Below are positions 26,784 to 39,369 of a stretch of 64,000 nt of DNA, one piece after another. Below the pieces are notes generated by a model. It had not been told where the DNA came from and searched no databases. It was given only the letters and a program-made list of their open reading frames with translations. Origin of the DNA: Escherichia coli (GTDB taxonomy: Bacteria > Pseudomonadota > Gammaproteobacteria > Enterobacterales > Enterobacteriaceae); the NCBI RefSeq assembly GCF_050320075.1, contig NZ_CP190018.1. One strand, given 5' to 3'. A program made the translations under genes and the position numbers. The first letter of the stretch is position 1. The number at the start of each line of letters is the position of its first letter.

Positions 26784-27140
26784 TCAGAAAAGAGAAGATT
26801 GCTGTGGAATAGCCGGAACTGCTCCGATCTCTGGAAGCGTTTTACGTAAGTCTTCCCACAGGGTATGTACCAGTTCCGGGGCCTGGGCAATATCTGGCGT
26901 ATGTAAAAAAAGATAAGGCGTAGTGGTCTGATGCCACTGCGCTAATTTTTGTAACCAGACCTGAAATAATTCCCGGTTTTGCGTCATATCATCACTACCG
27001 ATAAAACGGATCAGCGGATTTGTCGCCGTCAGTACAGCATGTACCGGAACTTTAGGTTTTTTTCGTTGAGCGTCGCGAATAGCTTCACTGTGTGGACGTG
27101 CTGCATGAACCGGGCGGCTGTCTAAAATCATCAAGGTCTA
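26784..27140 (-). pseudogene. yecE: yecE (DUF72) C-terminal fragment, separated from its N-terminal part by the 12.2-kb insertion
   Basis: ..ILDSRPVHAARPHSEAIRDAQRKKPKVPVHAVL..PQQSSLF continues exactly from the fragment ending ..GVNRVI at 39363-39841. Confidence 0.9.
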
Positions 27141-27157
27141 AATGCACTACATGGGCA
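27125..27157. other. attL (attB left half / AAAATCA core / attP right arm GTCTAAATGCAC)
   Basis: Chromosomal CTGTCT + AAAATCA + element TCAAGGTCTAAATGCAC. See the att reconstruction finding. Confidence 0.75.
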
Positions 27158-27193
27158 CCTAAACATATACATGTGATGTTGAGGTGTTAGAAA

Positions 27194-27209
27194 GGGGGCT
27201 GTTCAGCCC
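27194..27209 (-). terminator. Hairpin downstream of the 306-aa gene
   Basis: GGGGCTG (27194-27200) pairs with CAGCCCC (27203-27209). On the minus strand it is followed by CTTTCT. Confidence 0.5.
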
Positions 27210-27218
27210 CTGATAGAC

Positions 27219-28139
27219 TTAGTAATTATCCCTGACAACTTCATCATATCTTTCAATGAAGGTTAGTTGTTTATTACTTCCATTATAACTATCAACCCAT
27301 TTGTCTACAGCTTCATCGAATAGAAATAAAAAATCCGTATAATTTATATACACTACATTATCATAATATTGGGTTGGGTGACCTCTTTTACATACAGCAA
27401 TACTAAGACGTCTTTCTTTACCCTGAGTAACTTTGTGTGAATTAAGATTAGTCATGTGAAGCAATGAGTTCCTTAATTCATATAATTCGTCGGAAGTTAC
27501 TCCAAGTTTTTGTATATCTGAGTATGTATCTAACCAATTTTGAAAGACTCTTCTTTTGTTTCCAAACTCAATATAAGCTATAGTATCAATAAATGACATT
27601 AATAGCTTGAAGCTTGACAAGTAATGTTTTTTGTTAAACAGAAGCTTTATTGGTTCCATATGGTCATCATTAAGAAGTTCCTTAATGTGAAAACCATCAT
27701 CTTTCATATACTTATCAAGATAGTCTGGCAAGTCTTTTACACCTTCAATGTGATAGTTAGGTGTGTGCTTATTCCTTAATTGCTCTGACATTGATAACTG
27801 AATATCATATTGTAATTTGCCTTTAACAACGGGGGTGACTATAGCTAAAGGGTTTTCAGGTGCATTTTGAGCTTCTAATGCTAATTCAAACGGAGCAAAA
27901 GGATTACCAATCCGCAAATTTGCATTATATCTTTCAAGTGTCAATTTGTCATTTTCTAAAACAGAAGGGTGTATCCCATAAAATAAACGACAAGAAGCTA
28001 AGTCAATCTCCAAATTCCGCTTTAAAAAATCTAATTTTTGCGCATCATCGCCATCATGTTCGTGAGGTACTATTCCGGCATGTGTGATATGAACTCCATC
28101 AGGACTAAAGCAAAATATGTTGTAGATAATCTCTTTCAT
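27219..28139 (-). CDS. Hypothetical accessory protein with a C-terminal HEPN-like RNSLLH (Rx4H) motif; possible Abi-type RNase
   Basis: 306-aa ORF, very AT-rich, at the element edge. R223-N-S-L-L-H228 is encoded at 27456-27473, within a helical C-terminal half. The N-terminus has a His/Asp cluster, HITHAGIVPHEHDGDD. Confidence 0.35.
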   Translation of the reverse strand: MKEIIYNIFCFSPDGVHITHAGIVPHEHDGDDAQKLDFLKRNLEIDLASCRLFYGIHPSVLENDKLTLERYNANLRIGNPFAPFELALEAQNAPENPLAIVTPVVKGKLQYDIQLSMSEQLRNKHTPNYHIEGVKDLPDYLDKYMKDDGFHIKELLNDDHMEPIKLLFNKKHYLSSFKLLMSFIDTIAYIEFGNKRRVFQNWLDTYSDIQKLGVTSDELYELRNSLLHMTNLNSHKVTQGKERRLSIAVCKRGHPTQYYDNVVYINYTDFLFLFDEAVDKWVDSYNGSNKQLTFIERYDEVVRDNY

Positions 28140-28400
28140 ACCATTCTAACCTTCAGTGAAAATAAAGTTTTAACTATCATTAGATTATGAACAATCACAA
28201 TTGGCCTGTAAATAACAGGGCATAAACAGGTTCGTTTAGCTTGATTTTATCACTATAACTGTCTGATTTAACGGTAACTCACCAAGTATACACACAGTAA
28301 TTACACAATCCTGTTATTATGTAACTTATTGAAATATATAAATAATTTTTACATTCTTTGTTTGGGGTAAGCTGTGTAATGTTAGTCGTCCCTCTCCAGA

Positions 28401-28444
28401 CACTATATATAGTGCTATATACAGGACTATATAACGATATATAG
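28401..28444. repeat. CTATATA box array (12-bp period), including the 14-bp palindrome CACTATATATAGTG
   Basis: CTATATA at 28403, 28415 and 28427, plus an inverted copy at 28438-28444. Palindrome at 28401-28414. Confidence 0.7.
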
Positions 28445-28742
28445 ATGTTTGGTCACATGGTATAACTATCAAACCACTTAACGATTTCCTACGTGAAAGT
28501 TAGAAAGTGATAGTTATAGTTACCTTGTCAAATCTTCGTAGTCCCTTCTTAAAAAATCGTGAAAGGTAATCTTGTTATCTATACAGAATCTACGTAGATG
28601 CTTCTTAGTGCGCAAAACAGCTATTATGTTAAAAACGCACTGTATACGTATCAGTACTGATTTATAAGGGTTTTGTGTATTGGCTGATAAGAGGCTATAC
28701 AGCACCTTGAGAGCATGTCTTCTAAGTCATTGACATATAAGG

Positions 28743-28820
28743 TCACAGAAGTTTGTAGCTGTTACAGAGAAAACTGGATAGGACTTCACAGAACTATAAA
28801 ATGTTACAGCTATTGATAGG
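28743..28820 (+). repeat. Two tandem 43-bp units TCACAGAA..GTTACAG..GATAGG
   Basis: TCACAGAA at 28743 and 28786; GTTACAG at 28761 and 28803; GATAGG at 28777 and 28815. Confidence 0.65.
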
Positions 28821-28832
28821 TGAAATCTTCTT

Positions 28833-29050
28833 GATAGATGCTTTGAAGTGTGGTGAAGGCTTTTTGAGGTGGGGCTAAACAGATATCATGAAGAAAGTCA
28901 ATAGTTGATTCGGTTTATCGAATAAACCTCATAGATATTTTAAAATTCTGCAAAGGGGGTCACATAGCTGGTGTGACGGGTACTTAGCAGCTACAGACAT
29001 CTATCAGATATTTTTGAAGATTTTTAGAAGGGGAATTTGAAGAGGGGCTA
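28833..29050 (+). repeat. Two ~45-bp degenerate direct repeats ending in TTTGARGWGGGGCTA, 172 bp apart
   Basis: Copies at 28833-28877 and 29005-29050 align over TTTGAAG..GAAGG..TTTGA(G/A)G(T/A)GGGGCTA. Confidence 0.6.
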
Positions 29051-29249
29051 CTACGATTTTATAAAAATTTTCAGATTCTGAAAAGTTACTGTACAGAATA
29101 TGTACAGATATCTTTAAAGTATCTGTAAAAACTTTTAAGATAAAAGATAGATATCCCAGAAAGGATATCCGTTTAGAAAACCTATTAAGTATCTCTTAAA
29201 AGAGAGTAAACCTTGTCAAGAGTGATTGCAATAAAAATTTTTATTTCTT

Positions 29250-29912
29250 ATGTCAATTGAGTGTATTTTAATCGGGAAACATCATGGGGGTTCTGATTAC
29301 TGGAGAACTCCATTTTTGTTATTTAAGAACTTACACCGTGAATTTATTTTCAGTCTGGATGGTGCTGCAACTAAGCACGATACGTTATTACCCCGCTTTA
29401 CGGATGATATTCACAATCAGTCATGGGATGGTGAACGGGTATTCTGTAACCCACCATACAGCGACACTAAAACATTCCTCGTAAAAGCGTCTGAGGCAGA
29501 TTTATCGGTATTCCTGATACCGTACCGACCCCAAACCATATACTGGCTTAAGCACATCTTCACAAACCCGCTTTGCCATGAAATCCGTATTCTTCATCGT
29601 GCAGTTAAATACCTTCCACCAGCAGGGCATAACAGGCTTACTATTAGGTCGCCGTTTCCAAGTGCAGTCGTTGTTTTTAAAAAAGAACCACGCAGGCATG
29701 AAATTACGCAGATGGTTTGCTGTGCTGATACATTGCTACCGTTAACCATCATTAACAGAGGAGGCTTGAGAGGAAGGCCCACCATTTACCCACCTGAGAC
29801 GCTCGACAGCTTCATAAAACTATACAGGCAAGGCAAACCCATTAAGTGCATTGCAGATGCTCTCAGAATGCCTCTGAGCACGTCATACAGGATTGCTCAA
29901 AGGTTGAGCTAG
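29250..29912 (+). CDS. Phage Dam-family N6-adenine DNA methyltransferase with a C-terminal HTH extension
   Basis: GSDYWRTPFLLF..FSLDGAAT..W.GERVFCNPPYSD matches the phage N6A-MTase family (DxWxTP, LDxAA, NPPY). Residues ~170-220 (GRPTIYPPETLDSFIKLYRQGKPIKCIADALRMPLSTSYRIAQRL) look like a resolvase-type HTH. Confidence 0.75.
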   Translation: MSIECILIGKHHGGSDYWRTPFLLFKNLHREFIFSLDGAATKHDTLLPRFTDDIHNQSWDGERVFCNPPYSDTKTFLVKASEADLSVFLIPYRPQTIYWLKHIFTNPLCHEIRILHRAVKYLPPAGHNRLTIRSPFPSAVVVFKKEPRRHEITQMVCCADTLLPLTIINRGGLRGRPTIYPPETLDSFIKLYRQGKPIKCIADALRMPLSTSYRIAQRLS

Positions 29913-30016
29913 AATTCTCATAAATATGGTCATTTACAAGACAGGTGATTTAGATATTAAGAGGTATCCCTGTGAACAATAAATGACCAATCAGTAATTA
30001 TCCTGTGAAATAATTG

Positions 30017-30045
30017 TTGCAATTTATAATCACACATGGTATAGT
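30017..30045 (+). promoter_or_regulatory. Sigma-70 promoter with extended -10
   Basis: TTGCAA (30017-30022), 17 nt spacer containing TGg, then TATAGT (30040-30045). Confidence 0.6.
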
Positions 30046-30052
30046 TTCATAG

Positions 30053-30255
30053 TGGACTGATAAAAAAGTTCATGTCTTGAAGTGGTAACACTTGGGGAGG
30101 TGTCAGATGATTGACGTATATTAACCTCTCATTCATGGTAATACCTCAGCGTTTTAATCATCGTACTGTTTCAGGCATGGACTTCTTTATCAGTCCATCA
30201 ATCCCCCAGATATTTTAATCACACAGGCTAATCGGTTTTATCCGGTTGGCCTTTT
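30053..30255 (+). ncRNA. Structured ~200-nt leader or small RNA ending in an intrinsic terminator just upstream of rep
   Basis: 22-nt closing helix 30053-30074 / 30176-30197 (20 WC pairs, 1 GU, 1 AC). GNRA hairpin at 30080-30093. Hairpin at 30095-30130. Terminator stem 30226-30235 / 30242-30251 followed by TTTT. Confidence 0.5.
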
Positions 30256-30276
30256 CACGTATGAGGTAATTTATGA

Positions 30277-31245
30277 ATGAAAAAAGAAACTAATGCTTTT
30301 ATTATGGTAGATAAACGAGTTGCACAATTCCCTAAAACATTAAAGCCAATTGACCGCTTGGTATATTTCACTATGCTGGATGGTGCTGATTATTACGAAT
30401 CTAAGTTCGGGAGATACGCACCAAGTATTGACTATTTGATGGTTATGTCTGGTGCTACACGTAATACAGTTATTGATTCACTTAAGAGACTTGAGTCACA
30501 CAGACTTATCGAAAAGACCAATGTAAAGGGTCAGCAAAGTATTTTTAAAGTATTCACGTTGGATGAGCGTCCAGAGGTCTTATCAGAACCTACCCTTGAT
30601 GAGCGTCGTAGAGCTAAATTATCAGGTCAACCAGAATCTGACAGTAACCCAACCAAAAATTGGTTACCTACCCAACCAGAATTTGGTTACCTACCTAACC
30701 AGAATTTGGTTACATGTAATACTGAATATAAAGACAAAAATATAAATACTGAAGAAGAAAGACTAAAAGGGAACTTTGAAGAAGAATCTCTTAAGAAGGG
30801 AGCTTCGCTCTGTGATTCACATGAATGTGATATTAAAGAAGATGACTTTCTTTCTTTGGATGAATTAAATGATTTTCTCTCTATGAATGAATCTGGCCTT
30901 GATAGTGAAGCTACTAAAGAGGCTGTTAAAAAGGAAGATAAAATCTCTGATGTGAATATCGATAGTGACCATAAAAACACACAGTGCCCCGCCACTGATG
31001 ATGAGATGGACCCCTTCGATGATTACCTTGATGAAGAGTCAGAGCGTGAAAAAGCCATTAAGAGGGTAGAGAAGAAAAAGAGATTCGAGCTTGCAAGACA
31101 AAAGAACAAAGTATCGGGTTTAGACCCATTCGATGACAGTGACGATGATGACTTTTCTTTCACACCAAGAAAGAAACAAACTCAGGATGACAAGAAGCAA
31201 AAAATTAAACCGAAGATGTATTTTGCTGGTGGAGGTATGCGCTAA
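30277..31245 (+). CDS. Replication initiator (N-terminal winged-HTH, acidic C-terminal tail)
   Basis: 322 aa. The N-terminus ..IDRLVYFTMLDGADYY..YLMVMSGATRNTVIDSLKRLESHRLIEK.. resembles HTH_36-type Rep or lambda-O-like initiators. Iterons lie inside the ORF. SD GAGGT at 30263-30267. Confidence 0.55.
   Translation: MKKETNAFIMVDKRVAQFPKTLKPIDRLVYFTMLDGADYYESKFGRYAPSIDYLMVMSGATRNTVIDSLKRLESHRLIEKTNVKGQQSIFKVFTLDERPEVLSEPTLDERRRAKLSGQPESDSNPTKNWLPTQPEFGYLPNQNLVTCNTEYKDKNINTEEERLKGNFEEESLKKGASLCDSHECDIKEDDFLSLDELNDFLSMNESGLDSEATKEAVKKEDKISDVNIDSDHKNTQCPATDDEMDPFDDYLDEESEREKAIKRVEKKKRFELARQKNKVSGLDPFDDSDDDDFSFTPRKKQTQDDKKQKIKPKMYFAGGGMR
30629..30719 (+). repeat. Iteron array (candidate ori): three 23-bp units plus one degenerate unit, each with an AACCAnAAnTTGGTT palindrome, followed by an AT-rich tract
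   Basis: Units start at 30651, 30674 and 30697 (AACCA(A/G)AATTTGGTTACCTACC). Degenerate unit at 30629-30650. AT-rich tract at 30715-30760. Confidence 0.65.
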
Positions 31246-31541
31246 TGAAAGAATATCACGGTGAAAAGAGATACAAAGATTACCTGTTAAAGCGTTATAG
31301 CATTTCTCGTGAAGGCCACTTAATGAAGGATACTCACGGGGAAGTTTACCGGATTAGACCGAAGAAAGAAGGGAGGGATTATTTCTTTTACGATGGTGTG
31401 ACAGATTTAAAGATTGATGCTTTGAAGTTTGCGGCGCTGTATCATTATGATATCTGGGACTCAGTCCACCAGCTACGATTAAAAGACGGTGACCCCGGTA
31501 ATCTGAGGGCCACCAATATTATCAAGGGAAAGTGCCGGTAA
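31245..31541 (+). CDS. Hypothetical 98-aa protein, weakly NUMOD4/HNH_3-like (degenerate)
   Basis: ATGA overlap with the rep stop; GGAGG SD. YSISREGHL.. and VHQLRLKDGDPGNLRATNI loosely recall homing-endonuclease-type DNA-binding modules. Confidence 0.3.
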   Translation: MKEYHGEKRYKDYLLKRYSISREGHLMKDTHGEVYRIRPKKEGRDYFFYDGVTDLKIDALKFAALYHYDIWDSVHQLRLKDGDPGNLRATNIIKGKCR

Positions 31542-31550
31542 GTCCACCAG

Positions 31551-31727
31551 CTATTTATTTATTGAAATCTCTATCTCAACACGAAGAAGTTTAAGTCGAA
31601 TTGTAAGCTTTGTCTTTTTTGTAATGACTCGATTCATAACGCAAAACACCAATAGCACAATAAATACCGCAAAGCCCAACGAGCTAAAACGATGAGATTC
31701 AATAATTGCTGTGAAAAAATCATGCAT
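31551..31727 (-). CDS. Small single-pass membrane protein (58 aa)
   Basis: MHDFFTAIIESHRFSSLGFAVFIVLLVFCVMNRVITKKTKLTIRLK... AAGGA SD 6 nt upstream. Own promoter at 31778-31806 on the minus strand. Confidence 0.45.
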   Translation of the reverse strand: MHDFFTAIIESHRFSSLGFAVFIVLLVFCVMNRVITKKTKLTIRLKLLRVEIEISINK

Positions 31728-31777
31728 TAATTTTCCTTTTGCGAAAGGAAACAGCACCTGTATCAGCCCCTATAACC

Positions 31778-31828
31778 ATAATATCATGTAAATGAGATGT
31801 TGACAATATGTTAAATAAATGTTATGAT
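31778..31828. promoter_or_regulatory. Back-to-back divergent sigma-70 promoters with overlapping -35 hexamers
   Basis: Plus strand: TTGACA (31800-31805), 17 nt, TATGAT (31823-31828). Minus strand: TTGTCA (complement of 31801-31806), 17 nt, TATTAT (complement of 31778-31783). Confidence 0.65.
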
Positions 31829-31864
31829 TGTAGTATGAGTAAGAGATTTAAGGAGATTTTTACA

Positions 31865-32155
31865 ATGACTCACACAGTTACGCGCCTTTTGCCAGAGGCA
31901 TTTGAACGACTGGCAGCAATCAAAGCCAAATATCCCGATATGAAGCACACAGCGCTTGTTGGAGAGCTTTTAAAAGAGTCGGTAACCCTGACCCCTTTCG
32001 ATAACGTTAAGGGCGTTGCAGAGGGTTCTAAGGCCATCAGAATCACAACGGACCAACTGGAACTACTCAAAGCACAGTCCGCAGTAGCAGGTTGCTCAAT
32101 GATTCAGGTGTTAAGCGCAAAGGTCCATCAATTAGCGGATAGGCTGGGGGTTTAA
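31865..32155 (+). CDS. Tandem ribbon-helix-helix (RHH) protein, candidate switch repressor
   Basis: 96 aa. Two strand-helix-helix patterns (TVTRLLPEAFERLAAIKAKY..HTALVGELLKES and AIRITTDQLELLKAQSAVAG.SMIQVLSAKVHQLADRL). AAGGAG SD at 31850-31855. Confidence 0.4.
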   Translation: MTHTVTRLLPEAFERLAAIKAKYPDMKHTALVGELLKESVTLTPFDNVKGVAEGSKAIRITTDQLELLKAQSAVAGCSMIQVLSAKVHQLADRLGV

Positions 32156-32580
32156 TGCTATGCACATTTGATTATCATGCGTTTTATCGCCATAGAGGCC
32201 ACCTTGTCCGTGAGAATAGCGGAACATGGAAAGATTTAACTCGTAATGCTGAACCCTTCACACACCAGCAATTAAAATCCCGCTTCTCCAGATGGAAGAA
32301 TGCACCAGCAGATACTGGTGATTTTGAGATTATCCATACCTTCGATTATGCCTCAGAAGATGACCTTCACGATGCAATTAAGCTGATTGAAGACTTCAAT
32401 ACCTCAGAAGATGTGGATGGTGACAAATATAAATCCCGTGGTAACCGCTATAACCGTGATGATATCACTCAGGCCATAAATGCTGGTCAATCTCAGCGAT
32501 ACATTACAGAAAAATATGGTATTTCACGGAGACAGTATTTCTACGTTAAATCATTGATTAATAAAGACAATTCAAAATAA
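32155..32580 (+). CDS. Hypothetical 141-aa protein with C-terminal HTH
   Basis: TAATG overlap with the upstream gene. The C-terminus DDITQAINAGQSQRYITEKYGISRRQYFYVKSL resembles a resolvase/terminase-small-type HTH. Confidence 0.4.
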   Translation: MLCTFDYHAFYRHRGHLVRENSGTWKDLTRNAEPFTHQQLKSRFSRWKNAPADTGDFEIIHTFDYASEDDLHDAIKLIEDFNTSEDVDGDKYKSRGNRYNRDDITQAINAGQSQRYITEKYGISRRQYFYVKSLINKDNSK

Positions 32581-32741
32581 CCATCTCAGTAACGGTAGAA
32601 TGCACTTTACAGGCAGAGTTGCACCTTAATTTGATAAATTACCTTACCAGCCAGTGCAACTCCCTCTGTAACCCGCATGATTACTGGTCTCAGAATGGCT
32701 ATTTTAAGAGGTCTGAGATGTGTTTTGTAGGAGATTTAAAA

Positions 32742-33065
32742 ATGAACAACTTCCCATTACAGATTTTCGTTGATAACGACACCGCTATGATGGTGCAAAG
32801 CTTCAGTGATGCAGGTATTAGCATTGATTTTGACAGGCTGTTAAAGCTAATGGCTGATAATGAAGAAAACGTCTCTGACTTTATTCACTCGGTGGAGTTT
32901 AACGAGCCTCGAATGATGTTACCAATTACAGACAGTAATATGAAAAGATTGGTTATTGAGCAAACGAACAAATACAGTATTTCCCCAGAGCAATTTTTGA
33001 AAGGTGCTGTGACAATCCTGTACAGCGATAATATTTTGGTTACGGATTCCGTGAGGGTTCACTAA
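32742..33065 (+). CDS. Hypothetical 107-aa protein
   Basis: ATG at 32742 preceded by GTAGGAG. The longer ORF-track start (32619) lies in a structured non-coding leader. Confidence 0.45.
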   Translation: MNNFPLQIFVDNDTAMMVQSFSDAGISIDFDRLLKLMADNEENVSDFIHSVEFNEPRMMLPITDSNMKRLVIEQTNKYSISPEQFLKGAVTILYSDNILVTDSVRVH

Positions 33066-33142
33066 TGGGCTTAATAATTGCTTGGACGTTGCTTGGCTTA
33101 TTTGTTGGTTGCTGGGTAGGCAGCACAGTAAATAGAAATTGA
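33065..33142 (+). CDS. Possible 25-aa hydrophobic peptide MGLIIAWTLLGLFVGCWVGSTVNRN
   Basis: TAATG stop-start overlap with the upstream ORF. GAGGG lies 7 nt upstream. One predicted TM helix. Confidence 0.3.
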   Translation: MGLIIAWTLLGLFVGCWVGSTVNRN

Positions 33143-33166
33143 TGTTACCAATCTGTTAAAAAGCTG

Positions 33167-33195
33167 TTGACAAATAACCTTAAGCATGAGATGAT
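33167..33195 (+). promoter_or_regulatory. Candidate promoter, paralogous to the 31800 promoter
   Basis: TGTTGACAA..17 nt..GATGAT, compared with TGTTGACAA..17 nt..TATGAT at 31798-31828. Confidence 0.4.
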
Positions 33196-33636
33196 GGTAA
33201 TAGGGGAGAGCAACTCTCTCTTATTTTTCTTTCAAAATAATCCGATGGATGGATATTCTGAATTGGAAAGGTGCAATGCTTTTCGTCATGGCCTTTCAGT
33301 TTAGTCTGAGAGGCTATCTCAAAAAGTGCTTAATCATTCATTGAACCCTTTACAGCTTTGCCCTAACTCATGATTAGGGCTTTCTTTAAGAGTTTTTAAA
33401 CAGAGCTTTTAAAGAAAGTTTTTCCTGAAACTTCGTTAACGTTAAAGCAAACCTTCAAAGCCCTTCACAGATGAGGATGATTCCATGAATATCCGAATCA
33501 CCTATGTTTAGGGCTTTTTTCAGCTTTTAAAAAGCATACTTGGCAAACGCCTTTTAAGCCTCTTCTAAGTTCGAGGATGTCAGGTGTGCTTTTTAAAAAC
33601 TGAAACATAAATTATCTTAGAAGAGGAAAGGTATTA

Positions 33637-34341
33637 ATGGCTATCCGTGATGAAAATGAAATGATTATTGAAAACAAACCAAGTGCACTTGATATTCACG
33701 AATTAAGTTTGCGTGAATCTTTTGATAGAGCTTGGCGGGAATCACACGAAGTAAATAAAGGTCCATATATTCCACCAGAACCACTCGAGATTCCAAGAGT
33801 TGAAATTGATTTTTCTATGAACGAACGGTGTGAACTTGATTTGAAGTTGAAGCTACAACGCCGATATTTCCAAGCTATTAAAGACTCTCAAGAAGCAATG
33901 AGAAGTGTTTATGAGAAAATTCAGTCCAAGCTTGAAGACGAAATTGACGAAATGGCTATTTTGATGGAGCTTCAAACCAATCCTTATGCTTATTTCTCTC
34001 GACTAGACCGTGACGGTTGGGGGTATGACCCTGTAGAGATTGGTAAAGTGATTGCAGATTTACCAGAAGGTCAAAGGGTTATTCGTACGGAAAGGGCCAT
34101 CAGAGCGCCACATCAACTGTCTCTAATTGTTGCTGATAAATCACAAGCTGAGCTTGAAGAAATTGCCAAAGAGAAACTGATGAAAGCAAGAGAAAATGAG
34201 ATTAATTTGCTGAAATCAAGACTGGCTAAGCTGATTAGTGACCATCAAGCGCTGGCTAAGGAGTACCGTCAAGAGTTGGCACAGATTATCAGCTTCAATG
34301 ATTTTCTGAGTGTTCCACGAGAATTTAGCAAGGCTGTTTGA
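33637..34341 (+). CDS. Hypothetical 234-aa coiled-coil-rich protein
   Basis: Good SD (GAGGAAAGG). Charged heptad-like C-terminal third. No family recognised. Confidence 0.5.
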   Translation: MAIRDENEMIIENKPSALDIHELSLRESFDRAWRESHEVNKGPYIPPEPLEIPRVEIDFSMNERCELDLKLKLQRRYFQAIKDSQEAMRSVYEKIQSKLEDEIDEMAILMELQTNPYAYFSRLDRDGWGYDPVEIGKVIADLPEGQRVIRTERAIRAPHQLSLIVADKSQAELEEIAKEKLMKARENEINLLKSRLAKLISDHQALAKEYRQELAQIISFNDFLSVPREFSKAV

Positions 34342-34364
34342 TTATGAATTAAAAGAGGTGATTA

Positions 34365-34583
34365 ATGTATGAAGACCGTTTGGAAACTATCAAGGCAGTT
34401 TGTGAAAAACTTAAAAACCAACCACGTAAACCAAAAACGGTAAAGAGTAAGCATCAGCCTGTCACCTCAAACAGCAAAATAAAGATTCGCAAAATTCCTT
34501 CGTGGTGCATTGACCGTATTCCGGTTGGTTCAAGAATTATTCGTGAAGATGGTGATTATCATTGGGTATCAGTTGTTGGTTAG
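34365..34583 (+). CDS. Hypothetical 72-aa basic protein
   Basis: AAGAGGTG SD. No family recognised. Confidence 0.45.
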   Translation: MYEDRLETIKAVCEKLKNQPRKPKTVKSKHQPVTSNSKIKIRKIPSWCIDRIPVGSRIIREDGDYHWVSVVG

Positions 34584-34598
34584 TTAGTAAAAATCTAC

Positions 34599-34638
34599 GG
34601 GAGAGATTATCGAGTGATATCGGTAGCTCTCCCTTTTT
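34599..34638 (+). terminator. Intrinsic terminator immediately upstream of the tape-measure gene
   Basis: GGGAGAG (34599-34605) pairs with CTCTCCC (34627-34633), with an inner helix, followed by TTTTT. Confidence 0.7.
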
Positions 34639-34671
34639 CGTATATGAACACTTAAGAGGTGAAAAATATGA

Positions 34672-36804
34672 ATGAGCAAATTCACAGTTGATAGTTTTAT
34701 CGTTGAATTAAGCTTCAATGAAAACATTATTAAGGGCTTGCAAAGAGTTGAAAAGGCAGCTTTGCAGTCAGCACAAAGAATTGAAAAGAACCTAAATAAA
34801 GGTTTCAGGATTAATACAAAGCAGCTTGATAGTAATTTAACGGCTTCTTTAGGGCAGCTTGAAAGGAAGTTTAATAAGGCCTTTGACAAGATTGAACAGA
34901 GAGCAAGAAATACTAAAGCTTTCCAGTTTACCACCAGATTTAATGACACTGTTAATCCTCCAAAACAACCGAGACAGCCACGAATTAGCGGCAACAGAGC
35001 AATCACAGCAGCTTACTCAGCGAATATGAGCAAGCTAAAAGGCTTTGACCCTATTTTGCAGAAATACATCAAATCTCAGTTTTACGGGCTATCTGCTAAA
35101 GCCGGTTCAATGGATTCTTCAAAATTCAATGAGAAGTTAGCTCAGTTAAACGCTTCAGTCAGAGAAGCAATTGCTAAAGCCAGAGGTCATACATCCACCA
35201 GCATTAATGGTGACAGAGCAGCTAATAGTCTTGATAACCTGTCTTCAGCAGCAGTTAAAACAGCAGGTGCATTTATCTCAATGCAGGCTGTATTAGCCAG
35301 TTATCAGAAGATTATGGAAATTGGTTTACAGCGTGCAAGTGCTGAACGTTCAATTGATTTCGTATTTGATAAAGATGCAGGTCAAGTAAAAGAGTTCACA
35401 AAGTCATTAGCTCAAACAACGGGTTTAGATATCGCTGAACTGCAATCACAGTTTGCTGGTTTTGGTGCTTCAGCTAAAGAGTCTATGGGCATTCAAGGTT
35501 CTGAAGAACTTTTTAAAAATATGATTGGCTATGCTCGTCTGATGGGGAGAAGTGAAGAAGAGATTAAGCGAGCACTGACAGCATTATCACAGATGGCTGG
35601 TAAGGGTCAGGTTATGGCTGAAGAGCTTAAGGGGCAATTAGCTGAAGCTGTTCCTGGTATGGTTCAGGTATTCGCTAAAGCAACCGGAAGGAATGAACAA
35701 GAGCTATTTGATGCCATGAAGAAGGGGGCTTTAAAATCTGCCGATACTCTTCAGAAGGTCACTCAGGAACTGAATAAACAAATCACCGCTAAAGGTGGCT
35801 GGAAAGCTATTTCAGAAAGTACACAGGCACAACTAGGGAACCTGAAAAACTCTTGGAATACCACGCTTGATAGTATCTTCAGAGGTTCTGAAGATGGTCT
35901 GCAAGATTTTACAAGAAGCTTAACAACGCTTTTAAACGCTCTTGGTGGAAGTGGTAAAAGTCTTGGTGAATCTCTTGGTAGTCTCATGACTTCTATGTCA
36001 CATGGTGTCGATTCATTGACTGATATCAGCTACAGGGTAAGAGCATTCTTCGATGAGGTGACATTAGCTTACCGTTCACTAAATGACACTCAGAAAAAAA
36101 TTGTTGATGGTTTATCTGATGGGTTAATTGATGGTTTGAAGATGCTTGCCGTAGCTGTTACTGCTCAAAAGGCTGCAAATGTAGCTGGAGGCTTGTTAAA
36201 CCTTGCAAATGCTGTTACTTCATTCGGTGATGCTGTTAATAAAGCTAAAGCTGGCAAGGCTGGTTCTTCAGGTGGTGCGCTAAATAAAGTTGGTAGAGTT
36301 GTTCTTTATGCTGAGTTGGTGAACTTTGCTCTTGATAATTTAAACCCTGAAGCGGCTAAGAATCCGAACTTACACCAATCAGGTATTGGAACAGAGACAA
36401 ACTTCAACCCTGAATACAAAGGCGATTCATCTAAACCAAACCAAATTAATGATGGATGGGCTAAGATTGGTAGTTCTATCGCTGACTGGTTTAATGGTGC
36501 GGCTAATAAAATTGCTAACTTCCAAGACCCGATGAATAACTTTGTTAATAACACACAATCAACTCCACCAGCTATCACAGGTGACATGGTTAATAGCAAT
36601 GCTCAACTTGCTATGGCTGTATCAGAGTTAGGAAGAAAGGTAGACGCTTTAACAGTAGAAGCTAAGAAGCCTTTATCAGTTAATATCAAAGGTGAAGCAA
36701 TTGTTAGACCGGATGAACCAGCTTTCTTTACTTTCAATCAATCAGCTAATGACCAGTTCACGCAGGATATGCTCTTAAGTTCAAGCTATCCAGAGGAAGA
36801 ATGA
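34672..36804 (+). CDS. Phage tail tape measure protein
   Basis: 710 aa. The segment ..RALTALSQMAGKGQVMAEELKGQLAEAVPGMVQVFAKATGRNEQELFDAMKKGALKS.. matches the conserved tape-measure core (lambda-type tape_meas domain). Long helical, Gly/Ala-rich remainder. Confidence 0.8.
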   Translation: MSKFTVDSFIVELSFNENIIKGLQRVEKAALQSAQRIEKNLNKGFRINTKQLDSNLTASLGQLERKFNKAFDKIEQRARNTKAFQFTTRFNDTVNPPKQPRQPRISGNRAITAAYSANMSKLKGFDPILQKYIKSQFYGLSAKAGSMDSSKFNEKLAQLNASVREAIAKARGHTSTSINGDRAANSLDNLSSAAVKTAGAFISMQAVLASYQKIMEIGLQRASAERSIDFVFDKDAGQVKEFTKSLAQTTGLDIAELQSQFAGFGASAKESMGIQGSEELFKNMIGYARLMGRSEEEIKRALTALSQMAGKGQVMAEELKGQLAEAVPGMVQVFAKATGRNEQELFDAMKKGALKSADTLQKVTQELNKQITAKGGWKAISESTQAQLGNLKNSWNTTLDSIFRGSEDGLQDFTRSLTTLLNALGGSGKSLGESLGSLMTSMSHGVDSLTDISYRVRAFFDEVTLAYRSLNDTQKKIVDGLSDGLIDGLKMLAVAVTAQKAANVAGGLLNLANAVTSFGDAVNKAKAGKAGSSGGALNKVGRVVLYAELVNFALDNLNPEAAKNPNLHQSGIGTETNFNPEYKGDSSKPNQINDGWAKIGSSIADWFNGAANKIANFQDPMNNFVNNTQSTPPAITGDMVNSNAQLAMAVSELGRKVDALTVEAKKPLSVNIKGEAIVRPDEPAFFTFNQSANDQFTQDMLLSSSYPEEE

Positions 36805-36967
36805 TTTCTTATATATCCGTGTGCTACGTGATTTCTTCTGAACAGATATACCCACTAAAAATTATTTTTTACGTAGCTCACGCTTAACAGAGAAAATACT
36901 TATATATCAAAGGCTTGGTTAAAAATGATTAAAATACACTAAGCCTTTGAAATCAAAGGAGAATTTA

Positions 36968-37741
36968 ATGATTTACTCTAATCAGATTCGTTACAGTGGT
37001 AAAGATGGCGTTTACTTTCATCTACAAGGCCAGCCAGATAATTTCTTGTCACTATCAGCTACTGAGAACATGGAATTTGACAGCCCTATGATGGTTACCA
37101 CTCAAAATATGCAATCAGGGCAGACTGTCACAGATAATGTAATGCGTTCACCCAGAACTATTTCAATCAGTGGTGTGGTTGTAGTTGGTGAATCCGGTAG
37201 TATCCTTATCTCAAGAGATAATAAGCTGGTGGAAAACTTCATAGACACTCTTGAAAACTGGCGTGACCAGAAGCAAATTATCTCAGTTGTCTGTAAAGAT
37301 GGTATTAAGATTGACGACTCAATTATTACAAACTTTAAAGCCTCTAAAGATGTTGGTATTGCCAATGGTCTTAGAATCCAATTAACTTTTCAGGAAATTA
37401 ACTTTAAAGCTATTGTGGGTCAGACTGATATCTCGGCTGCGACCGGAAGGACTTCTACCACAAGTGATGGTGGTGCTACCAGTAAAAAGAATACAGGGAA
37501 CACTACGACAAGCTTAGGTAACGGTATGTTGATGTGTCAGGAGCTATATAATCGCTCTACGAGTGAACTTACTAATGAGCAACTTCAAGCCCGTATCAAT
37601 TGTGGTAAAAATGTCAGAGTTAAGAACGGAAAAAGCACCTTCTCAGATGCCGCTAATGAGCAAGCTTCAAAGGTGCTTAATAATGCTGGTACAGGTAGTA
37701 CTTTGAAGAAGTATTCTGTTAATCCTAACAAGCGATACTGA
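36968..37741 (+). CDS. Tail-tip or distal-tail-like protein (family usually encoded just after tape-measure genes)
   Basis: 257 aa from [14 protein letters not shown].. (AAGGAG SD at 36956). The pattern [30 protein letters not shown] .. [12 protein letters not shown] resembles Dit-like tail proteins. Confidence 0.4.
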
Positions 37742-37755
37742 CGATAGAATCTCAA

Positions 37756-39279
37756 CTATATGATAACCTCATCAACATCTATTAAACCCCTCTCAGTGAC
37801 TTCAGAAAGCGACTGTATAGCCTCTGTAACGTTGTCTGAGGGGTTTTCTGTTATTGGTAAGGTGATTGCTTTACCGTTGTGAAAAGTTACTTTACAGCGA
37901 CGTTTAGCAGTATTTAAAACGACCTCTTTAACAGCACTTTTGATTATCAGTTGTGCTTCAATCCTTCCCGCCTTTGTAGTCAAGTCACAATCAGACAAAC
38001 AACCCACATCAATAGATTTAAGGCGTTGTGTCTCCTTCTCGATATCCGCATCAACTTGTGATAGCTCATTCTTTAGTTGTCTTAGTTTGCTGGTAATAGC
38101 GGACAAGTCTTCAATTTCAAGTGATAGCTGTACCAGCTTTTCAATATTGCTTGAGATGTGTTCACGGTGTAGCTTCAGTGTGTCTATGGTATTCGTCATA
38201 TCGCTATCAAATCGGTCAAGACGAGATAGCAGGGCAAGCAATGTACCATCGGTTTGCTTACGTGAAAGTCCTTTAGCACTACAACGGTTTTCATTACGAA
38301 GAGGACAACGATAAATCCCGTTTCTTGTATCGCTAAAGCCTGTGATAATCAAAGCATGACCACATTCAGAACAACGGATAACACCTTTGAAAAGATTCAC
38401 AGCCATTGGCTTATCTGAAGCAGGTTTTCTACCGTAACGAGCATATGATAGTTGTTGAACTTTGTAGAATGTTGTTTCATCTATAATTGCAGGATAATAA
38501 CCAGATATCTCCTCACAGCCTTTAGGTGTGAAGTAACCAATTACAGAGCGATTCTTCAAAAGGTCTTGCACTGAGGTTTGACCAAACTTACCTGCTTTGT
38601 ACTGGTTAAGCGTCTGGTGACCTTCAGCATTAAGAGTTCTGACAATCTCCCAGATAGACTTACCCTCTAACCGTAGCTGAAAGCACCTCTTCACAGTCTC
38701 CACTTTCTCAGGTATCACAGAGAAGCTTTTACGGTCATCATTAAGCTTAAGCCATGCAGGACAACGCCTAGAAATCTTGATACCAGCTTTAGCAGCTTCT
38801 TTCTTTGCATCCCATGCAGCTTGTATACGCTCAGCCTTACGTAATGATTCCTCATGCGCCCTTTGCATTATCAAAATGCTTTTAATCAGAGCTAACGGGT
38901 CTTTAAGAGATTCCCTTGTGTAATGTTCACCATCGGACAGGGTGACTACATCTACACCAGAGCGAAGAATGTTTCTGAGTAGCTCACTTGCTTGGTCTAC
39001 GTCCTGACGTGAGAGACGGTCTAAACTCTCGATTAGTAGTGTATCACCAGCTTTAACAAGCCCTTTCTCGATAGCGGTTAAAAAGTCACCTAAGCCACCT
39101 TTCAAGTGCTTACCAGTGAACCCGCTAACGCCTAAATCACGAAAAGTAAGGGATTCATCCAGATAGTACTCAGGATGAGCCTTAAGCCAATCAGTGACCA
39201 TCTTAGCCTGTCGTCTTAATGAGTCGCCTCTGGATTGCTTCTCAGATGAAAACCGGATGTAACTGATTGCACGTTTCAT
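37756..39279 (-). CDS. Large serine recombinase (integrase)
   Basis: 507 aa. N-terminal resolvase catalytic domain (AISYIRFSSEKQSRGDSLRRQ), recombinase domain, Cys-rich zinc ribbon (CSECGH..YRCP..C), and C-terminal coiled coil. Confidence 0.9.
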   Translation of the reverse strand: MKRAISYIRFSSEKQSRGDSLRRQAKMVTDWLKAHPEYYLDESLTFRDLGVSGFTGKHLKGGLGDFLTAIEKGLVKAGDTLLIESLDRLSRQDVDQASELLRNILRSGVDVVTLSDGEHYTRESLKDPLALIKSILIMQRAHEESLRKAERIQAAWDAKKEAAKAGIKISRRCPAWLKLNDDRKSFSVIPEKVETVKRCFQLRLEGKSIWEIVRTLNAEGHQTLNQYKAGKFGQTSVQDLLKNRSVIGYFTPKGCEEISGYYPAIIDETTFYKVQQLSYARYGRKPASDKPMAVNLFKGVIRCSECGHALIITGFSDTRNGIYRCPLRNENRCSAKGLSRKQTDGTLLALLSRLDRFDSDMTNTIDTLKLHREHISSNIEKLVQLSLEIEDLSAITSKLRQLKNELSQVDADIEKETQRLKSIDVGCLSDCDLTTKAGRIEAQLIIKSAVKEVVLNTAKRRCKVTFHNGKAITLPITENPSDNVTEAIQSLSEVTERGLIDVDEVII

Positions 39280-39340
39280 TGTTCACCTCACCAATAGCAG
39301 TTGGGCTTGTACCAACCCCTAGATTGTATCGCTTTAGATG

Positions 39341-39369
39341 GTGTATTTAAACGTGTCTAATAAAAATCA
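39341..39369. other. attR (attP left arm GTGTATTTAAAC / AAAATCA core / attB right half follows)
   Basis: Element GTGTATTTAAACGTGTCTAAT + AAAATCA, then chromosomal CCCGATTAACG. Confidence 0.75.

Follow-up and report, generated by a model that had tools for sequence, protein, structure and literature searches.

We analyzed a 64,000-nucleotide stretch of an Escherichia coli chromosome (assembly GCF_050320075.1, contig NZ_CP190018.1; here called the window), in which a 12.2-kb island (positions 27131 to 39362) is inserted in yecE and carries rep, the gene for a putative replication initiator. Within rep lie four short repeats (iterons) and an adjoining AT-rich tract. Judging from the sequence comparisons below, we put at roughly 80% the probability that the array and the tract together are the island's replication origin, bound by the N-terminal domain of the same Rep protein that they help to encode. 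An origin inside the initiator gene is an arrangement known from phage lambda and from staphylococcal plasmids, and we found no earlier account of it for the yecE island family.

An iteron array and an AT-rich tract inside rep

The gene and the elements of the proposed origin are arranged as follows.

30277 to 31245, plus strand: rep, gene for a 322-aa initiator, holding the putative origin; intact open reading frame (ORF), with the ribosome-binding site GAGG 9 nt upstream of the ATG
30277 to 30621, plus strand: N-terminal winged-helix domain, residues 1 to 115, presumed iteron-binding specificity domain
30622 to 31002, plus strand: predicted disordered linker, residues 116 to 242, whose coding DNA hosts the putative origin; predicted local distance difference test score (pLDDT) <50
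30629 to 30650: iteron 1, degenerate, AACCAGAATCTGACAGTAACCC; 22 bp to the next unit
30651 to 30673: iteron 2, AACCAAAAATTGGTTACCTACCC, with the dyad AACCA/TGGTT around an A/T center
30674 to 30696: iteron 3, AACCAGAATTTGGTTACCTACCT
30697 to 30714: iteron 4, AACCAGAATTTGGTTACA; the third full unit is AACCAGAATTTGGTTAC, then ATGTAA
30715 to 30760: AT-rich tract, presumed DNA-unwinding element; 46 bp, 19.6% GC

An earlier note on this DNA had described three 23-bp units starting at 30651, 30674, and 30697, a degenerate unit at 30629, a palindrome in each unit, and an AT-rich tract behind the array, all within the Rep ORF. This description is borne out by the sequence itself, by Tandem Repeats Finder (score 113, period 23, 2.9 copies, 93% matches), and by a separate repeat search that returned the same family. 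The full units stand in tandem, are 23 bp each, and have the form AACCA(A/G)AA(A/T)TTGGTTAC; the palindrome is the dyad AACCA-N5-TGGTT, which is present in each unit with (A/G)AA(A/T)T at its center. The four units occupy nt 353 to 438 of the 969-nt gene. Two details needed correction: the third full unit ends not in CCTACC but in ...GGTTACATG, and the units, which start in frames 2, 1, and 0, encode NWLPT, QPEFGYLP, and NQNLVT rather than a repeated peptide. A period of 23 bp does not divide into whole codons. The units are therefore read in all three frames, so that this is a repeat of the DNA and not of the protein, and the gain or loss of a single unit breaks the rep reading frame.

The core pattern AACCARAAWTTGGTTAC matches exactly three times in the window, each time within the rep array. 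When up to 3 mismatches were allowed, there were 5 matches against 0.71 expected, a count reached in 0 of 100 shuffles; no further iteron copies, for instance upstream of rep where they might serve autoregulation, were found at that threshold. Only 0.7% of the 46-bp windows of the island are as AT-rich as the tract at 30715 to 30760, which is also the duplex of lowest stability within rep.

Three rep types that differ in a specificity cassette

The comparison drew on 32 rep genes, taken from E. coli genomes (loci L002 to L021, including one Escherichia sp., L017) and from metagenomes (L023 to L035). By their N-terminal domains they fall into type A (13 genes, among them the rep of the window), type B (9 genes), and type C (10 genes). 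These domains are homologous and clearly diverged, while the common C-terminal half keeps whole-Rep identity between types at 49 to 65%. Each type has its own array.

Type A array: unit AACCAGAATTTGGTTACCTACC, period 23 bp
Type B array: unit ACCCACTGAGTCAAAATTCTTT, period 22 bp
Type C array: unit GTGACAAAATGTCAYCAGTACCA, with the palindrome TGACA-AAA-TGTCA, period 23 bp

Intact arrays of all types have four units, the first of them degenerate, at nt about 342 to 438 of the gene, and every type A, B, or C array is followed by 46 to 60 bp at 15 to 22% GC. The N-terminal type matched its array in all 32 genes. The earlier note had raised the possibility that the repeats might be absent from homologous rep genes; instead, arrays stand at the same place in the homologs of all three types, and where the N-terminal domains diverge, the arrays differ as well.

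Pairwise blastn comparisons show where the types part.

30280 to 30823: specificity cassette as delimited against type C by pairwise blastn

Homology with type C islands (90 to 94%) ends at 30279, in the start codon, and starts again at 30824. With type B, it ends at 30122 to 30136 and starts again at 30773, directly past the AT-rich tract, giving a cassette of about 30137 to 30772. Since these boundaries bracket exactly the N-terminal domain, the iterons, and the AT-rich tract, this block is the unit of exchange; on the sequence comparison, these three parts are a contiguous specificity cassette of ~540 to 650 bp that is recombined between islands.

Single units have been lost in two type C genes (L016 and L017) and two type A genes (L027 and L028), and rep is frameshifted each time. 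The array thus exposes the protein to damaging mutations, and still no intact gene has lost it.

Two of these loci show further changes. In L016 (about 1875 to 1940), the frameshifted type C pseudogene, the center of the last iteron is flipped from GTGACAAAATGTCAC to GTGACATTTTGTCAC, the reverse complement of the palindromic unit. The metagenomic type B rep of L031 (2992 to 4485) contains an internal tandem duplication of ~510 bp. The resulting ORF of 497 aa has the iteron array and AT-rich tract twice, each time complete.

Constraint at the DNA level in distant relatives

A search of the N-terminal domain against 1.84 billion representative proteins returned only 16 relatives, of which five were examined at the DNA level. 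Three of them, at 38% (L036), 44% (L038), and 39% (L039) N-terminal identity, have the same layout as the rep of the window with unrelated repeats: a 23- to 24-bp array of 3.4 copies at nt 418 to 498, a 22-bp array of 3.9 copies at nt 407 to 492, and three palindromic units ATACGG-AAA-CCGTAT, respectively. A diverged B-like rep (L041) has a 22-bp array of 3.4 copies. Dyad iterons with an A-tract center, placed centrally in rep, are found in six replicon types besides that of the window. When the whole gene is scanned in 46-nt steps of sequence, the stretch with the least GC begins no more than ~12 nt from where the array ends, and this holds in 7 of 7 types.

The AT-rich tracts also share a short sequence. 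The 15-mer AACAAGAAAGAACTT occurs exactly, and once each, in type B, L041, L036, and L038, ~20 to 25 nt past the last iteron, in genes that differ in their iterons and whose N-terminal domains are ~40% identical. L038 translates it in another frame, to KEQERTF instead of NKKEL. Type A has a degenerate copy.

30752 to 30764: AAGAAGAAAGACT, degenerate copy of AACAAGAAAGAACTT in type A, recognized by eye only; one substitution and one deletion

These comparisons bear on the suggestion that the array is a coding repeat that arose by chance or slippage in a low-complexity linker and has no function as DNA. The linker is indeed predicted to be disordered and is compositionally biased, and such regions tolerate insertions. 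However, a period of 22 to 23 bp yields no peptide repeat and turns single-unit changes into frameshifts, each N-terminal type has a different repeat with the same architecture, the same place, and internal dyads, and the 15-mer is kept at the DNA level across reading frames. We regard a functionless coding repeat as close to refuted by these sequence patterns, and it is the least probable of the explanations considered here.

The Rep protein

An AlphaFold2 model of Rep, built on a nine-row alignment and leaving the C-terminal half without a resolved fold, contains a single, confident winged-helix domain at residues ~10 to 105 (pLDDT 73 to 93). Residues 116 to 124 and 126 to 242 have pLDDT <50, and one helix follows at residues 253 to 277. 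The disordered residues 116 to 242 are the part encoded by the iterons and the AT-rich tract, and the sequence of this linker is highly variable between rep types. Because the putative origin sits in DNA that codes for a disordered linker, it would carry little cost at the level of the protein.

Among initiators of known structure, the model of the N-terminal domain is closest to 4RO3, which is the N-terminal domain of RepA from the Vibrio cholerae satellite PLE (PMC7145576); it also resembles the RepA_N initiators of staphylococcal plasmids, one of which has been solved with iteron DNA bound (PMC7145576). As modeled, the fold of the domain is a RepA_N/DnaD-like winged helix. A profile comparison of Rep with 4RO3 (E = 0.22) detected no sequence homology. 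Rep does match the PHROG replication-initiator families 270, 428, and 678 (E = 1.7e-7 to 2.9e-6) and scores 18.2 bits, under the cut-off, against Pfam HTH_36; its relatives match HTH_36 (PF13730) above the cut-off and DnaD_N (PF21984) just under it (25.4 bits versus 27). Rep had no match to Pfam Rep_3 (PF01051), and NCBIfam and PADLOC returned nothing for it.

Two features belong to the 3' end of the gene.

31120 to 31161, plus strand: C-terminal acidic/aromatic motif LDPFDDSDDDDFSF, nearly invariant, possible recruitment motif
31245 to 31541, plus strand: 98-aa ORF, translationally coupled to rep by a TAATG overlap

The motif is the best-conserved stretch of an otherwise mosaic C-terminal half; in the alignment, its L, its first D, the FDD triplet, three further D residues, and one F are invariant. 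A shorter motif, MDPFDD, lies at 31006 to 31023, the longer form being LD(P/D)FDD(S/G)(D)DDDF(S/T)(F/Y). Both resemble DFDDDIPF, the C-terminal tip of single-stranded DNA-binding protein (SSB), and they may serve to recruit SSB-binding replication proteins. The distant relatives P0128 and P0132 also have acidic/aromatic tails at their ends. The coupled 98-aa ORF, for which Pfam, PHROG, NCBIfam, and PADLOC gave no match, is present after rep in nearly all relatives.

Weighing the origin assignment

Several observations weigh against an origin at this place. Between 29900 and 31300 we found neither DnaA boxes (at ≤1 mismatch) nor an integration host factor (IHF) consensus; GATC sites are likewise missing there. 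The sequence evidence that Rep is an initiator is weak, with PHROG matches of ~1e-6 to 1e-7 and an HTH_36 score under the cut-off, and Rep matches neither Pfam Phage_rep_O nor RepA_N (for the latter, PF06970, there was no match at E ≤ 0.1 for Rep and nine relatives). No helicase, primase, loader, or polymerase was recognized among the scanned ORFs of the island. The most distant relative (L040; 35% identity, E = 8e-4) has no array. The co-occurrence of N-terminal type and array is in part simple linkage, as the domain adjoins the iterons. Finally, the type A array is no more conserved than its surroundings, with 6 variable sites in 86 nt against ~25 in 352 nt of flanking coding sequence; the dyad arms of units 2 to 4 are free of these 6 sites.

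A rival reading is that the array binds Rep or another DNA-binding protein for an end other than replication, as an operator or roadblock through which rep is autoregulated, in copy control by handcuffing, or as a packaging or recombination signal. We consider this improbable. The AT-rich tract abutting the array is kept in seven types and is typical of origins, whereas an operator would have no use for it; the best structural and PHROG matches of Rep are initiators, not regulators; and the same layout is a proven origin in plasmid pSK41 (PMC5703833) and in lambda. Autoregulation could, moreover, coexist with origin function.

From the sequence layout and the structural similarity, which are observed, we infer Rep binding, oligomerization, melting, and C-terminal recruitment as the steps of a possible mechanism. 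Dimers of the N-terminal winged-helix domain would bind the four AACCA-N5-TGGTT iterons, which are spaced 22 to 23 bp, or about two helical turns, apart. The iteron-bound dimers would then oligomerize and bend the DNA, and the adjacent 46-bp tract (20% GC) would melt as a result. The conserved, acidic, largely disordered C-terminal half of Rep would then recruit a helicase or primase, for which the island itself has no gene, from the host or from a helper phage.

Comparison with known systems

The earlier note had likened the arrangement to the origin inside gene O of lambda. The likeness in layout holds. In lambda (NC_001416) we measured four dyad iterons at 0.39 to 0.48 of O, with start-to-start spacings of 20, 24, and 23 bp and in different frames, followed by ~40 bp at 23 to 25% GC; in the island, the iterons lie at 0.36 to 0.46 of rep with spacings of 22, 23, and 23 bp, followed by 46 bp at 20% GC. 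In lambdoid phages, specificity resides in the N-terminal domain together with the iterons, and the helicase loader is contacted by the C-terminal domain. Homology of Rep to O itself was rejected (hhalign probability 0.2%, E = 0.36; no Phage_rep_O match in Pfam), the closest O-type signal being the weak match to PHROG 678, "O-like" (E = 2.9e-6). The island also differs from lambda in not being a phage and in having no P-like loader gene downstream of rep, where the coupled 98-aa ORF matches nothing. The lambda origin is therefore an analog and not a homolog. Also rejected was an assignment to the Rep_3 iteron plasmids (pSC101, F, and R6K): there is no PF01051 match, a single winged helix is modeled where Rep_3 initiators have two, and tblastn returned no plasmid relatives.

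The better-supported relationship is with the RepA_N-fold initiators, the gene plan being that of pSK41, a theta replicon of the pSK41/pTZ2162 type from Firmicutes plasmids, and the genomic setting that of PLE. In the 319-aa Rep of pSK41, an N-terminal domain of ~120 aa binds four Rep boxes located centrally in rep, the middle of the protein, encoded by ori, is a linker that can be dispensed with, and DnaG is bound and recruited through the C-terminal domain (PMC5703833). The plan of the island rep is nearly identical. pPR9 is a natural chimera in which the N-terminal domain and the origin have been swapped, the replacement being a PF13730 helix-turn-helix (HTH) domain (PMC5703833), that is, the family matched by the relatives of the island Rep. 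RepA_N iterons are described as semipalindromic direct repeats with arms that converge on an A-tract (PMC7145576), a description that fits the island units. The differences are also clear. The island Rep lacks the sequence match to Pfam RepA_N; its C-terminal half is acidic, mostly predicted to be disordered, and unrelated to the DnaG-binding staphylococcal domain; no antisense-RNA control region was identified for the island; and the element is not a plasmid but an island integrated in E. coli, with a large serine recombinase.

PLE provides the closer parallel in genomic setting. Its RepA was assigned to the RepA_N family by structure only (PMC7145576), and the link of the island Rep to that family is likewise one of fold. 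Each element is a gammaproteobacterial island of roughly 12 to 18 kb that encodes a large serine recombinase and an initiator devoid of helicase and primase domains, and in each case the N-terminal domain and the origin are traded as one module next to a conserved C-terminal domain (PMC7145576, PMC8263062). In PLE, the RepA_N domain covaries with the origin and the C-terminal domain is conserved; an origin-directed phage nuclease seems to have provided the pressure for repeated swaps of the modules (PMC8263062). The PLE origin differs in being noncoding, with three iterons of ~30 bp, against four units of 22 to 23 bp inside rep. PLE RepA drives replication only during infection by the helper phage ICP1 (PMC7145576), and this helper dependence is demonstrated, whereas no helper is known for the island. 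The absence of a recognized replisome gene suggests that the island origin may be silent without a helper. The earlier conclusion that the element replicates autonomously after excision does not follow from the layout, given that no helicase or primase was recognized and that PLE RepA is helper dependent (PMC7145576).

If the origin assignment is right, about 30277 to 30800 plus Rep would make up the minimal replicon of an uncharacterized island family. An origin inside the gene of a RepA_N-fold initiator is regarded as a design of Firmicutes plasmids. The description of PLE RepA noted that initiators of the RepA_N family are rare in Gram-negative bacteria (PMC7145576). The island family would extend the Firmicutes plan to the Enterobacteria and give E. 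coli a replicon design akin to those of Firmicutes plasmids and of PLE. At least three interchangeable cassettes of N-terminal domain and iterons on one C-terminal half amount to a natural specificity experiment, in which one can study how the specificity of initiator and origin evolves and what drives its exchange. There is also a caveat for annotation. The 22- to 23-bp repeat makes rep prone to frameshifts, and pseudogenes annotated as "frameshifted HTH protein" in this family reflect changes in iteron copy number.

The yecE island and its family

The bounds of the island were set by comparison with an empty yecE site (L022); they and the genes that bear on its nature are listed here.

27124 to 27130: left 7-bp direct repeat AAAATCA at the island/yecE junction, against the empty site
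39363 to 39369: right copy of AAAATCA, against the empty site
34672 to 36804: tape measure protein, PF20155
36968 to 37741: Dit-like tail protein, PF21821
37756 to 39279, minus strand: large serine recombinase, 507 aa, with Pfam Resolvase, Recombinase, and Zn_ribbon_recom domains

Removal of the island in silico yields an intact yecE, with the layout found in 5139 of 5426 genomes. The gene order begins with a 306-aa protein, a Dam-like methyltransferase with a C-terminal HTH, Rep, and the coupled 98-aa ORF and continues with several small ORFs, the tape measure and Dit-like proteins, and the serine recombinase. The two tail proteins are the only recognizable virion genes; no capsid, terminase, or lysis genes were seen in the island. 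Among phages, the tape measure protein has its best relatives in Felix O1-like virulent myophages (30 to 32% identity, E about 1e-57).

The family is found in 130 to 149 of the 5426 complete E. coli genomes (~2.5%), on chromosomes only, and it also integrates within mdtG (L019) and next to dinB (L015). Carrier strains include E24377A and YZLc1-3, to the latter of which the window is 100% identical. Relatives were absent from phage genomes (blastn and tblastn), plasmids (tblastn), and IMG/VR viral contigs, and a scan of species-representative genomes returned a single Escherichia sp. locus. We found no description of the yecE island family in the literature.

It could be asked whether the origin is genuine but a relic, in a decaying island that no longer excises or replicates. 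Decay is evident among the relatives: besides the four rep genes frameshifted by unit loss (L016, L017, L027, and L028), insertion sequence elements in L019 and L020 break the tape measure gene or cut rep short, and the lack of any match in phage or viral-contig collections points the same way. In the window, by contrast, rep is intact with four units, as are the recombinase, tape measure, and Dit-like ORFs; the island has precise 7-bp-repeat bounds in an otherwise restorable yecE; and the family occupies several integration sites and shows active mosaicism across the genomes that carry it. We therefore rate a relic as a little less probable even than an array without a role in replication, and a vegetative replication origin inside rep is still the most likely reading.

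In gene content, the island has the look of a satellite-type element not described before. From the tail genes and the recombinase one might speculate that it is an undescribed phage satellite. That the yecE island belongs to an E. coli phage-satellite family analogous to the Vibrio PLEs is an idea that rests on the large serine recombinase, the RepA_N-fold initiator, the swappable cassette of N-terminal domain and origin, and the lack of replisome genes of its own; we think it doubtful, though clearly less so than the rival explanations of the array. Were it true, replication from the intragenic origin would be helper dependent, the existence of at least three origin specificities would be owed to the avoidance of incompatibility or to an arms race with phage nucleases that target origins, and the 15-mer of the AT-rich tract would be a common loading site for hijacked replication machinery.

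Further sequence features of the island

Around rep, promoter-like sites are no more frequent than in shuffled sequence (5 versus 5.7 expected), and terminator-like sites number 3 against 1.0 expected, all on the minus strand. Upstream of rep, TT(A/T)TAATCACACA(T/G)G occurs twice, at 30024 to 30041 and 30213 to 30230, 189 bp apart, and an inverted repeat with 25-nt arms (30053 to 30077 and 30173 to 30197; 88% complementary) has 95 nt between its arms. The paired repeats and the inverted repeat may be regulatory elements of the rep leader, which is replaced downstream of about 30137 in the type B cassette.

The left end of the island is variable. In the window it holds the gene for the 306-aa protein (27219 to 28139, minus strand), which matched no family, followed by 1.1 kb (28140 to 29249) of very AT-rich DNA without long ORFs, where GC falls to 11% at about 28314. 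In many relatives this end codes instead for a small serine recombinase of ~185 aa.

Finally, an 83-aa ORF with a T5orf172/MUG113 domain occurs in L036 (6933 to 7184) and L037 (1165 to 1416), in a distant relative directly 3' of rep. ICP1 fuses a nuclease of this domain family to a RepA_N-like domain to form its origin-directed nuclease, Odn (PMC8263062).

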